Assembly: GCA_965215125.1 (NCBI GenBank)
Contig: OZ244052.1
Location: forward strand, 1,130,068-1,194,067
Source: an uncultured candidatus Porisulfidus sp.
Lineage (GTDB): Bacteria; Pseudomonadota; Gammaproteobacteria; Poriferisulfidales; Oxydemutatoraceae
Length of the DNA stretch: 64,000 nt
Direction of reading: 5' to 3'
This document shows, piece by piece, positions 24,001 through 27,000 of the stretch. A program made the position numbers. Position 1 is the stretch's first letter, and every line of letters begins with the position of its first letter.

Positions 24001-27000
24001 AGCAGGCATGACGAAGTCGGCGAAAGGGACAATAGAAGCACCGGGCAAGAATGTGAAAGTAAAGTCAGGTTTGAATAGGGAGATACTAAAAAGTGGTTGG
24101 TATAAACTGGAACAATGCTTAAGCTACAAAGCATATATAGAAAAGGTCAATCCGGCATATACAAGTCAAACCTGCAACAGGTGCGGAAGCATAGATAAAG
24201 CGAACCGCAAAACACAAGCGATATTTAAGTGTCGGCACTGCGGACACGAGGACAATGCAGATGTCAATGCTGCATTAAACATTTTGGCGGCTGGGAGTAC
24301 CGCAGCTGGGCGTGGAGATTGCAACATTGGTTGGTCTGTGAAGCGTCAAAAAGATAGGGTAACGGGGCGGTCTAACAAGTCTGTCAAGTCACCTATATAA
24401 TTCCCAAAACAAATGATTATTTTTCATAGGATTAAATTTATCTATATCAAATCGGATAAAGTTGTCGGCATGTCATTCGAGATGGTATATGAGGCATAAA
24501 TACACGCGGAGCCGTTGAAAAAGTATTTCATACACCGTAGGGACGGACTATTCCCTTCCTGTGGAGGGGTGGCAGGCGTGAGAACCGCAGCTTTATCCTG
24601 TCCCTACAGGTGGTTTGGATAATTATGTGGCACACAGCGGGTTGGATTTGTGCGGTGTCAATAGTTTTGCAACAGCCCCGCGTACATAGGTTCACGACTT
24701 AAATTTCCTTCTCTAGATATGTTAATGTCCGTTGCCAGGCGATTTCCCTTAGGCATCTTTGTTGTTGAACCGGGGTTGGCAATGCGCGAACTGCTCCTTG
24801 CATTGATGCTCGGTATCGTCGCACTATGTTATGTCTGGGGGTGGGGAGTGATCGTCAACATCGTCATTGCGGTTATCACCGCCGTCGTATCCGAGGCGGT
24901 GATCCTAAAGATCCGAGGCATCGCAGTCATGCCGATACTACAAGATTACAGCGCGATAGTGACCGCAGTCCTACTGGCACTGGCTCTTCCTCCTTATCTG
25001 CCGTGGTGGGTTGTGGTCATTGCCTCGGCTTGTGCAATCGTGATAGCAAAACAGTTGTACGGTGGTCTCGGTAATAATTTGTTCAATCCGGCAATGGTCG
25101 GCTATGCAATCGCAATGATTGCTTATCCGCTAAACTTGACGGTGTGGCCCCCCGATGTATTGACGGCAACCCGTTTTGATTGGGTTCAGGCGATTGATTA
25201 TGCGGTTAACGCCGCTAGCGAACCTTATGTTGCTACACTCACCGGTGCAACACCTCTGGATCTTTGGCGTACCGACAGTGATTGGCAACCGCGTGTAGAA
25301 ACCACAATGATACATTGGAATGTTATCAATATCTGTTTTCTAGTCGGTGGATTATGGCTACTGCTACGCCGTCTTATCCACTGGCATATTCCGGCAGCGA
25401 TACTATGCACACTGTTCATTGCGGCTTTGGTATTTCCCGGTGGTTTATCACCGCATTCGTCGTTGTGGCTACATCTGGGATGCGGTGCAACGATGATCGG
25501 TGCTTTTTATATTGCCACCGATCCGGTCACCTCGCCGCGCCACCCGTATATGAAAGTACTGTTCGGTATCGGTGTCGGTGTATTGACTTTTATAATCAGA
25601 AAAAACGGCAGTTATGCGGATGGTTTTGCATTTGCGATACTATTGATGAACCTTTTTGTTCCTTTAATGAACCGTTATGCTAAATAAACATTATGCAGGC
25701 ACCTATTTGCTTGCCTTAGTCGTTATGGTTGCGGTGGCAAGTCTAACGAGCAGTGAGTTTTGGACTCGCGAGGCGCGCACGCAAGCACAACAAGAAAAAA
25801 TTGAACAAAGCCTTAGTGCGGTAGCACCGATTACCGATTACGATAACAATCCGCTACAAGAAAAACAGTACCGACAACACGGCGGGAAAACCTATATCGC
25901 GTATCCGTTCACAAGAGATGGTCAATTGGCAGGCTATGTAATACAAAATGAAACATATTCCGCTTACAATGGGTTGCTGAAGGTATTGGTCGGGTTGCGA
26001 CGCAACGGGACTTCCAGCGGTGTTCGCGTTGTAGCGCATCGTGAAACCCCCGGATTGGGCGACCGTATAGAACCTCGGAACAATCGCTGGATACTAAAAC
26101 TTCAAGGAGCTACGGTTGATAAACGCTCGTGGCAGCTCAAAAAGGACGGCGGTGTAGTGGCCAACTTAACCGGTGCCACCGTTAGTGCACGCGCAACATT
26201 GAACAGCGCACACGAGGCTTTGTTATACTTTACACGCGATTTAGAGTATTAGGATACACGATAAGTGAACACACAAGCAATCAAGCAAATTATTGTTGAG
26301 GGTTTTTGGGAGCAGAATCCCGGCGTGATACAGTTGTTAGGCTTATGCCCGCTACTTGCAGTGACGACGACACTGCAAAACGGGTTCATCTTAGGCGTCG
26401 CCAGTCTAATCACCGTAACCCTAAGCTGTTTGTTGGTTTCGCTATTGCGGCATTATATTTCTATGCCGTTGCGACTACCGATTTGCATTGTGATTATTGC
26501 CATGATTGTCGGAAATATAGACCTGTGGATGGCAGCGATGCTTTACGAGCAGCACCAAGTCTTAGGTCTATTCGTACCGTTGATTATCAGCAATTGTGCC
26601 ATCTTGGCGCGTGCCGAAGCGTACGCACTACATCATCCTCCCTTATATGCAACGGTGGACGGGCTGGCAACCGGCTTAGGATTTATCGCAGTGCTTTGTA
26701 TAATCGGTACTTTTAGAGAGCTCTTAGCCTACGGGAATTTGGGAGCAGGTGCGGGGATACCGATATTTTTGCCGGCGATTACGCCGGCAGGCGCATTTTT
26801 TAGCCTTGCGTTGTTAATCGCACTGATCAAGTTTTTAAAAACATACTACGGCACAGAACGGAAACCGGCACGACTCAGCAAATGACTAAACAAAAAATTA
26901 TTCGAATATTCGAACGGCTGAAAGCACAAAACCCCGAACCTCGCAGTGAACTTAAATATCGTTCTCGCTTTGAACTGCTGATTGCGGTTATTTTGTCGGC

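Follow-up and report, generated by a model that had tools for sequence, protein, structure and literature searches.

A GC-rich element found near tnpB and beside an IS1182-family insertion sequence in a Candidatus Porisulfidus genome is a junction of two nested repeats, one of which brackets DUF559 genes in other bacteria

A 64,000-nt stretch of contig OZ244052.1 from an uncultured Candidatus Porisulfidus bacterium (hereinafter the window, to the full length of which all window coordinates refer) carries two versions of a GC-rich element of about 50 nt, one downstream of a tnpB gene (24537–24587, copy A) and the other, in the opposite orientation, next to an insertion sequence (IS) of the IS1182 family (47936–47987, copy B). 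In the shared sequence, two nested interspersed repeats join: the 5' arm of a repetitive extragenic palindromic (REP) element is followed by the first ~30 nt of a two-hairpin module that we denote E. The interpretation that we consider rather probable is that both copies are worn REP–E junctions, copy A nested in an IS1182-type miniature inverted-repeat transposable element (MITE) and copy B lying beside the IS, and that E originated as the end of a cassette encoding a DUF559 protein and has been multiplied passively.

The match between the two sites, on which an earlier note made from the sequence alone had drawn attention to this element, is far beyond chance. An ungapped alignment of 43 nt (24537–24579 on the plus strand against 47945–47987 on the minus strand) shows 86% complementarity, ranks as the top inverted repeat of the window and, if a 2-nt gap is allowed, runs through AGAACC to the ends of the element. 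The 34-nt degenerate core GACTATTCCCYTCCTSTRGAGGGGTGGCAGGCGT matches copies A and B only in the window, with 0.00 matches expected from shuffles. The first 12 nt represent the 5' arm, GTAGGGRNGGAC, of a GTAG-type hairpin; the dinucleotide TA follows, and then E. The complete module E spans 42–52 nt and has the form ATTCCCCTCC-nnn-GGAGGGG-TG-(variable GC hairpin)-GGGGTGGT, that is, hairpin 1 (CCCCTCC-nnn-GGAGGGG), a GC-rich hairpin 2 with a variable stem and a GNA-type triloop, and a G-rich tail. The window copies conform to this layout, with hairpin 2 interrupted in both and the tail of copy A degenerate; the similarity between them ends after ~45 nt because an insertion splits hairpin 2 in each. 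The covariance model R1 assigns 25.4 bits to copy A (24548–24614, E = 1.3e-5, allowing for a 33-nt insertion in hairpin 2) and 18.5 bits to copy B (47909–47976, E = 0.0023), compared to 55–66 bits for intact E copies. In themselves, the two copies look like ordinary relics.

When one genome per species is scanned for the exact pattern, 10 matches are found in three metagenome-assembled genomes of sponge symbionts, two of Ca. Porisulfidus and one of Oxydemutatoraceae, so that the repeat is not limited to the two sites. In these related genomes, the REP, E and MITE modules are short, present in multiple copies, nested within one another and arranged in varying order as mosaics. The nine 8-kb loci chosen for carrying the repeat (L001–L009) contain ~27 E copies, 19 of them intact at 55–66 bits, and ~20 intact REPs, in each of which a 5' GTAG precedes a short GC-rich imperfect palindrome with an 8-bp GC stem and a 6-nt loop (GTAG-GGGCGGAC-6 nt-GTCCGCCC). 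The variants of the stem are compensatory (GGGCGGAC/GTCCGCCC, GGGCGGAT/ATCCGCCC and GGGAGGGC/GCCCTCCC). The abundance of REPs applies to loci selected for the repeat; the 64-kb window has three arms and keeps 5' arms only. The E module of the relatives is 48 nt long, TTCCCCTCC-nnn-GGAGGGGTGGCAGGC-GNA-GCCTGACGGGGTGGT, often resides in the REP loop and, wherever a REP arm is present, comes directly after GTAGGGGCRGAC-YA. The IS1182-type repeats have diverse outer flanks and form inverted pairs 140–290 bp apart, three of which are bounded by perfect 4–5-bp direct repeats (ATCGT, CCTCG and ACAT); they are also found within REP loops, e.g., in L008. The syntenic Porisulfidus loci L004 and L006 do not carry the same set of repeats, and the point at which they diverge lies in a REP. 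Among the fetched loci, a tblastn search detects an IS1182 transposase homolog in only one, L008. The same locus contains a direct tandem array (435–700) of 109-nt units, each made up of the IS1182-type repeat, E and a tail; given that the terminal-repeat motif is here in direct tandem, this array is not explained by simple MITE transposition.

The IS-end-like motif noticed in the vicinity of both copies proves to be a genuine terminal inverted repeat, the 16-nt GGGGCTGTTGAAAAAG that bounds the IS1182-family element. At 24.6 kb, this motif had been taken for a solo remnant, but an inverted partner is present at 24508–24523, so that the motif is not solo and copy A lies inside a MITE-like unit of ~172–179 bp (~175 bp). 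Both ends of the unit are inverted IS1182-type terminal repeats that match those of the IS at 14 of 16 positions, as expected of a MITE. Inward from the left repeat, a 13-nt linker leads to GTAGGGACGGAC and TA; the GC-rich core comes next, followed by an inverted GTAGGGAC arm, then by a degenerate AACCGC module and finally by the right repeat. The homology of the unit to the related genomes extends from 24505 to 24679.

Copy B is located on the minus strand, 9 nt past the stop codon of a cas6 gene, and reads GTAGGGGAAGAC, TA, core, an insertion of ~90 nt, GGGGTGGTTGTA, 4 nt and the right repeat of the IS; the same tail-to-repeat junction is found twice in L005 and also in L007. The ~90-nt insertion has the same position in E and the same orientation in L007, and is inverted in the ‘long form’ of L001 (6228–6320), L004, L006 and L009. 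Its presence in both orientations suggests a small element that inserts on its own. Further copies of the hairpin module that it contains (GTCAC, a variable 9–12-bp hairpin and GGTTCTAT), together with a tail/nest fragment, are found at 9983–10015 and 10137–10262, within the intergenic region 9978–10257; among the copies of this module, the flanks are kept and the stems are replaced wholesale, e.g., GCCGATTGA/TCAATCGGC, ACCACTTGT/ACAAGTGGT and GCCGTTTGTTGC/GCAACAAACGAC. The IS adjacent to copy B had been described as complete. This holds for its intact ends, with genuine terminal inverted repeats, but not for the transposase, which is split, probably by a frameshift, into two overlapping open reading frames (ORFs), 46939–47778 (279 aa) and 46401–46982 (193 aa), that jointly cover the 488-position IS1182 model. 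Of the explanations offered in the earlier note, a REP-like sequence targeted by the IS comes closest, in that the element starts with a REP arm and IS1182-type ends are found in the loops and flanks of REPs in the relatives, although the interpretation given in the note is, as a whole, only partly supported.

Module E extends far beyond the sponge symbionts. A metagenome scan with a pattern comprising hairpin 1 and GTGGCAGGC gives at least 149 exact matches in at least 120 loci, on contigs with a GC content of 0.32–0.68. The flanks of these copies are unrelated and the tail is conserved, although it lies outside the search pattern. Nearly identical E sequences are found in metagenome contigs and in named Cyanobacteria, Proteobacteria and Verrucomicrobiota, that is, in very different bacteria. 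Hairpin 2 comes in 91 distinct segments with 35 distinct stems and with loops that are mostly GAA, GCA or GTA; 82% of these segments form a hairpin of at least 4 bp versus 20% of shuffles. In a 58-sequence alignment, seven of the nine pairs of helix 2 are changed on both sides (94 cells), and the covariation score is 0.215, compared to 0.05 for shuffles and 0.02–0.065 for slid controls. Thus, the covariation analysis that the earlier note had called for detects strong covariation in hairpin 2, and the outcome contemplated there, a motif present only twice and devoid of conserved structure, does not apply: the copies are many and share the two-hairpin structure. An Rfam 15 search gives no hit to positions 24300–24800 at E ≤ 1 and none in ten loci rich in intact E copies; at the gathering and E-value thresholds, the window and the ten loci show only tRNA and chance miRNA-level matches. 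A search of the available literature found no description of the repeat and no paper with the E sequence. Neither the E 48-mer (blastn) nor DUF559 (tblastn) has a match in the plasmid and phage collections, and a scan of viral contigs gives only two matches, so phage carriage seems to be rare. Insertion at a fixed tetranucleotide, as in IS200/IS605, was ruled out inasmuch as the 5' flanks of E share only the final A.

Elsewhere, the E copies form inverted pairs of a ‘left’ type, with hairpin 2 of the form GGCAGGC..GCCTGAC, and a ‘right’ type (GCCC..GGGC and others). The two types alternate strictly, neighboring copies of the same type being almost never seen, and their spacing peaks at ~30 nt and at 360–560 nt in the tail-to-tail arrangement and at 12–15 nt in the head-to-head arrangement. 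Of the 13 tail-to-tail intervals of 360–560 nt, 12 contain an ORF of 118–172 aa encoding a DUF559 protein (PF04480; two representatives were checked for the domain and contain it). The ORF is oriented like the left-type E, starts 5–40 nt past the tail of the latter and, where both copies were detected, has the right-type E at its 3' end. Overall, DUF559 ORFs are present in 19 of the 120 listed metagenome loci (633 kb). The inverted left and right copies thus directly flank either a DUF559 ORF or a short spacer, and the association is tight and polar. In one case (L023), a cassette of 488 nt interrupts an hsdS gene; removal of the cassette leaving 2 nt restores an ORF of 391 aa with two Methylase_S stretches.

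The association is also apparent when the search starts from the protein. The cassette DUF559 protein has 2301 homologs at E ≤ 1e-20; the best 120 of these 2301 show 72–98% amino acid identity and carry names that include Cyanobacteria, Beta- and Gammaproteobacteria, Desulfuromonadales and Verrucomicrobiota. Five loci from four phyla were chosen by protein similarity alone and picked only by name. In all five, E (45–66 bits) is located directly on both sides of the DUF559 ORF, and four of the five are in type I restriction-modification (R-M) operons. A C-terminal extension of at least 12 aa is present in 78 of the best 120 homologs, and in 56 of these 78 it results from read-through of the right-type E, which yields the peptide TTPPLRGTPPxEGN; these tails often continue into the left-type E (NSPPLEGWQAQPDGVV). 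An exact protein look-up of six cassette DUF559 proteins returned no match, and one literature match to DUF559 was discarded because it actually concerned DUF5590.

In type I R-M operons (L132–L135, L024, L034, L066, L080 and L097), E pairs bracket not only DUF559 genes but also Fic/DOC genes and whole hsdS genes, and the hsdS end junction ..KKGLMQQL|E recurs in three unrelated contigs (L036, L089 and L132). Adjacent inverted E copies in the metagenome and genome loci L010–L136 share the 3-nt loop of hairpin 1 in 20 of 46 head-to-head pairs, with 3.9 expected, and in 23 of 47 short tail-to-tail pairs, with 9 expected, which suggests either that the copies are duplicated or converted locally or that long-range pairing between them is under selection. 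With regard to whether the basic unit is tail-to-tail or head-to-head, isolated DUF559 cassettes (L016, L019 and L023) favor the former, and the hairpin-1 loops are correlated in both arrangements.

These observations are best compatible with a scenario in which a DUF559 cassette moves horizontally and E forms its structured end. A single left-type E would have landed in the loop of a REP in the sponge-symbiont lineage, after which the REP–E composite would have multiplied passively along with the REPs and would also have spread by transposition of IS1182-type MITEs that make 4–5-bp target duplications. The two window copies would then be decayed by-products without a function of their own. 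Several points weigh against this scenario. Both E and the DUF559 cassette are mobile by inference only, and type I R-M operons, which are themselves horizontally transferred, could carry E passively. Among the metagenome loci, no clean pair of filled and empty sites was found; the only near-identical contig pair, L011/L027, diverges at the E tail and is possibly an assembly chimera. The target duplication at copy A is ambiguous, since the flanks ACGC/GCGT are inverted and a direct repeat, TACA/TACA, appears only if the terminal repeat is taken to be three bases longer. A tblastn search of the window and the 8-kb loci with an Escherichia coli sequence as the query, which is a weak test, detected no REP-associated tyrosine transposase (RAYT). 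Helix 1 is invariant in the alignment, but it was fixed, and partly imposed, by the search pattern. No inverted left/right pair around a DUF559 ORF or a short spacer is present in the window or in the sponge-symbiont loci, and tblastn detects no DUF559 gene in either; they hold left-type solo copies only, which are therefore solo derivatives rather than cassettes. Finally, both window copies are in the sense orientation just downstream of a gene (tnpB and cas6, respectively), a location compatible with a role in the 3' untranslated region (UTR).

This last point underlies an alternative that we regard as unlikely, namely that in this genome the element works as an RNA, either cis-acting or small and structured, such as a 3'-UTR stabilizer, a terminator-like cluster or a small RNA. 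The REPs of E. coli have been described as 3'-UTR stabilizers and terminator-like hairpins, the copies immediately follow the stop codons of tnpB (24400) and cas6 (47997), copy A is predicted to fold into a closed multi-branch structure (z = −2.95), and hairpin 2 of E covaries strongly across copies. However, the Rfam search was negative even at E ≤ 1, the hairpins are not followed by a T-run, and hairpin 2 of the two copies is broken by different insertions, with the scores reduced to 18–25 bits. Moreover, elsewhere E is found on both strands as inverted pairs, and also inside coding sequences, which better fits an element that acts at the DNA level. Such an element could be a site-specific recombination or cassette-boundary site, similar to integron attC or pdif, rather than the end of a self-mobile nuclease cassette, and the window copies would be dead versions of such a site. 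The strict alternation of left and right copies and the location of DUF559, Fic and hsdS genes of type I R-M loci, each between a left-type E on the plus strand and a right-type E on the minus strand with linkers of 12–26 nt, are compatible with this possibility, as is the enrichment of ‘DUF559 domain-containing protein’ (odds ratio 14) among predicted targets of programmed inversion (Milman et al., PMC9881135), which fits genes bracketed by inverted repeats. Nevertheless, we consider a recombination site improbable, given that no recombinase gene is consistently adjacent in the five annotated loci, that no inversion or excision variants were seen among the metagenome loci, and that E is also found at a distance from R-M loci, including REP loops, the vicinity of tRNA genes and the gaps between unrelated genes.

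Two alternatives are suggested by the genes next to the window copies, and both failed direct tests. One, along the lines of an option in the earlier note, takes the element for the right-end hairpin or omega-RNA scaffold of the IS200/605-type tnpB element and the copy at 47.9 kb for a miniature derivative. Copy A is located ~140 nt downstream of the tnpB gene on the same strand, where omega-RNA scaffolds of the IS200/605 family usually end. Yet, in tblastn searches of the 136 element-bearing loci (746 kb), no TnpB similar to that of the window was detected; homology to the relatives begins only at 24505, with the IS1182-type repeat, 105 nt past the tnpB stop; the left-end region of the tnpB element (23137–23219) lacks a copy; and a 10-nt inverted repeat, GGGAATTATA (23147–23156) and TATAATTCCC (24396–24405), suggests that the element ends near 24405. 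This makes the scaffold hypothesis very unlikely. Equally hard to sustain is the idea that the adjacent orphan Cas6 acts on copy B as on a CRISPR repeat, with copy A as a stray copy. Copy B does begin 9 nt after the stop codon of the cas6 gene, on the same strand; this gene (47997–48767, minus strand) encodes a protein of the Cmx6/type I-MYXAN family (PF09559, 3.9e-57; TIGR02807 above the cut-off). However, the window contains no repeat-spacer array and no other cas genes, the 136 loci encode no Cas6 homolog, and the junction sequence, in which the last codons and the stop of cas6 overlap the upstream flank of the REP, is conserved in relatives that lack cas6. The cas6 gene is located directly downstream of aroK-aroB, and an exact protein look-up of its product gave no match.

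Turning back to the scenario of worn REP–E junctions and a DUF559 cassette, each of its components resembles a known system while departing from it. REPs and bacterial interspersed mosaic elements (BIMEs) are mosaic palindrome clusters of Enterobacteria and Pseudomonas that are associated with RAYT transposases. The REPs described here share with them the GTAG head, the imperfect GC-rich palindrome (8-bp stem, 6-nt loop), the covarying stems, the mosaics with other short motifs and the insertion of ISs into REPs, and their copies are many and intergenic as judged from loci selected for the repeat, but differ in often holding a foreign 48-nt two-hairpin module in the loop, in being represented in the window by half-REPs only, and in the lack of a detected RAYT (in the weak test noted above). 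Among IS-derived MITEs, such as Correia/NEMIS of Neisseria and RUP of pneumococcus, the closest parallels are units of ~140–290 bp with inverted 16-nt IS repeats, no coding capacity and, at three pairs of the relatives, perfect 4–5-bp direct repeats; in contrast, the interior here bears no relation to the IS, being built of other repeats (REP, the AACCGC module and E), the terminal-repeat motif is also found in direct tandem 109-nt units, and the target duplication in the window is ambiguous. The DUF559 cassette is reminiscent of free-standing homing endonuclease cassettes: it is a discrete insertion, once inside a coding gene, that carries a small nuclease gene of the Vsr/DUF559 fold, a group that includes the Vsr-like (EDxHD) homing endonuclease I-Bth0305I (PMC3424549), and it appears to have spread horizontally, as judged from the identity of the best 120 of the 2301 homologs, which come from several phyla. 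Unlike these, it is outside any intron or intein and is bounded by inverted left and right hairpin modules, its nuclease activity is a prediction, and ORF-less pairs and solo copies of E are abundant. With integron attC and pdif (XerC/D) sites, E shares the format of a short imperfect palindrome that is conserved at the ends and varies in the middle, as well as the alternating orientation around single genes, but it shows no similarity to the attC core or to dif, has no adjacent integrase or dedicated recombinase, and is dispersed genome-wide. The resemblance to IS200/IS605 ends, palindrome-associated transposable elements (PATEs) and omega-RNAs consists in subterminal hairpins and in the location of one window copy downstream of tnpB; however, elsewhere E is found without tnpB or tnpA, its flanks show no conserved tetra- or pentanucleotide target, and copy A is outside the likely end of the tnpB element.

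More tentatively, and with less confidence than in the reading of the window copies, we propose that E and DUF559 define a mobile cassette that crosses phyla and seems to be undescribed. In such a cassette, the gene for a Vsr-like PD-(D/E)XK protein of the DUF559 family would lie between left and right two-hairpin ends, colonize type I R-M operons and other sites, and leave behind ORF-less pairs and solo copies that could later be captured by REPs and MITEs. In a stronger version of this proposal, E pairs would delimit exchangeable gene cassettes (DUF559, Fic and hsdS) in hsd loci.

The features of the two window loci are listed in Table 1.

Table 1. Coordinates of repeat features around copies A and B in the 64-kb window
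Feature	Position	Strand	Remarks
Left terminal repeat of the MITE-like unit, GGAGCCGTTGAAAAAG	24508–24523	+	2 mismatches (14/16) to IS1182-type GGGGCTGTTGAAAAAG
REP 5' arm, GTAGGGACGGAC	24537–24548	+	GTAG head and 5' stem half
Copy A of module E	24551–24614	+	Hairpin 1, 24553–24569; 5' half of hairpin 2, 24572–24577; then ~30-nt insertion
Inverted degenerate REP arm, GTAGGGACAGGAT	24596–24608	-	Pairs with 24537–24548 in the predicted fold
Degenerate E tail of copy A, AGGTGGT	24608–24614	+	Follows the insertion in hairpin 2
Degenerate AACCGCTTGCGCC module	24628–24660	-	Alignments to L002 and L005; in relatives, located between terminal repeat and REP
Right terminal repeat of the MITE-like unit, GGGGCTGTTGCAAAAC	24664–24679	-	2 mismatches (14/16) to GGGGCTGTTGAAAAAG
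Repeat module (CCCTAAAGTACCG...AACCGCTTGCGCC...AATGTATAAATCGTG)	46282–46371	+	Just outside the IS left end; common to five related loci; 79–90% identity to L001, L005, L007 and L008
IS1182-family IS	46380–47840	-	Perfect 16-nt terminal inverted repeats GGGGCTGTTGAAAAAG at 46380–46395 (+) and 47825–47840 (-)
Tail of copy B, GGGGTGGTTGTA	47845–47856	-	4 nt from the IS right terminal repeat
~90-nt insertion in hairpin 2 of copy B	47857–47945	-	Hairpin module GTCAC-ACCACTTGT..ACAAGTGGT-GGTTCTAT and flank
5' part of copy B of module E	47946–47973	-	Hairpin 1, 47955–47971, and 5' half of hairpin 2
REP 5' arm of copy B, GTAGGGGAAGAC	47976–47987	-	Conserved upstream flank CAATGTAATCGATATAT, 47988–48004, overlaps the cas6 stop codon

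The tnpB gene upstream of copy A belongs to an IS200/605-type element that lacks tnpA (23137–24405) and encodes a TnpB of 402 aa (23192–24400). Its left-end region (23137–23219) shows 89% identity to positions 3204–3286 of L003 from Oxydemutatoraceae, and the 10-nt inverted repeat mentioned above may mark the ends of the element. Beyond the left end of the IS1182-family element are genes for an HNH endonuclease (44946–45524) and a ParA-like protein (45622–46287). The regions 14375–22987 and 56144–58999 contain type III secretion genes, including those for SctV/FHIPEP (17045–19174) and an HrpJ/TyeA gatekeeper (20729–21850), and encode two paralogous IpgD/SopB-like phosphatase effectors (862 aa and 951 aa) that are in part identical at the DNA level (repeat families D15 and D17); together with the secretion genes, these effectors fit a host-associated bacterium. 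In addition, the window encodes five paralogous proteins of ~350–390 aa without a Pfam match (8072–9133 and 59363–63807), four of them head-to-tail in tandem (period of ~1.1 kb, 65–96% DNA identity) and one 51 kb away, and contains a tandem duplication of a 100-nt unit (616–817, 91% identity), which lies either upstream of the minus-strand ORF 60–623 or at its start.

For the window, these results mean that the 50-mer looks like a relic of nested repeats, neither a TnpB guide scaffold nor a Cas6 substrate, and therefore should not be annotated as a functional RNA. Beyond this genome, a 48-nt module with a covarying hairpin is kept almost letter-for-letter across a range of GC content from 32 to 68% and lies on both sides of the gene for a small, conserved Vsr-like nuclease, in many cases within type I R-M operons. 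Should the cassette be mobile, DUF559, a large family of ‘unknown function’, would gain a testable role as a homing or transposition nuclease that acts on the hairpin ends, the odd ‘TTPPLRGTPPxEGN / NSPPLEGWQAQPDGVV’ tails of many annotated proteins would be explained, and restriction-modification loci would be found to harbor a new kind of guest element.

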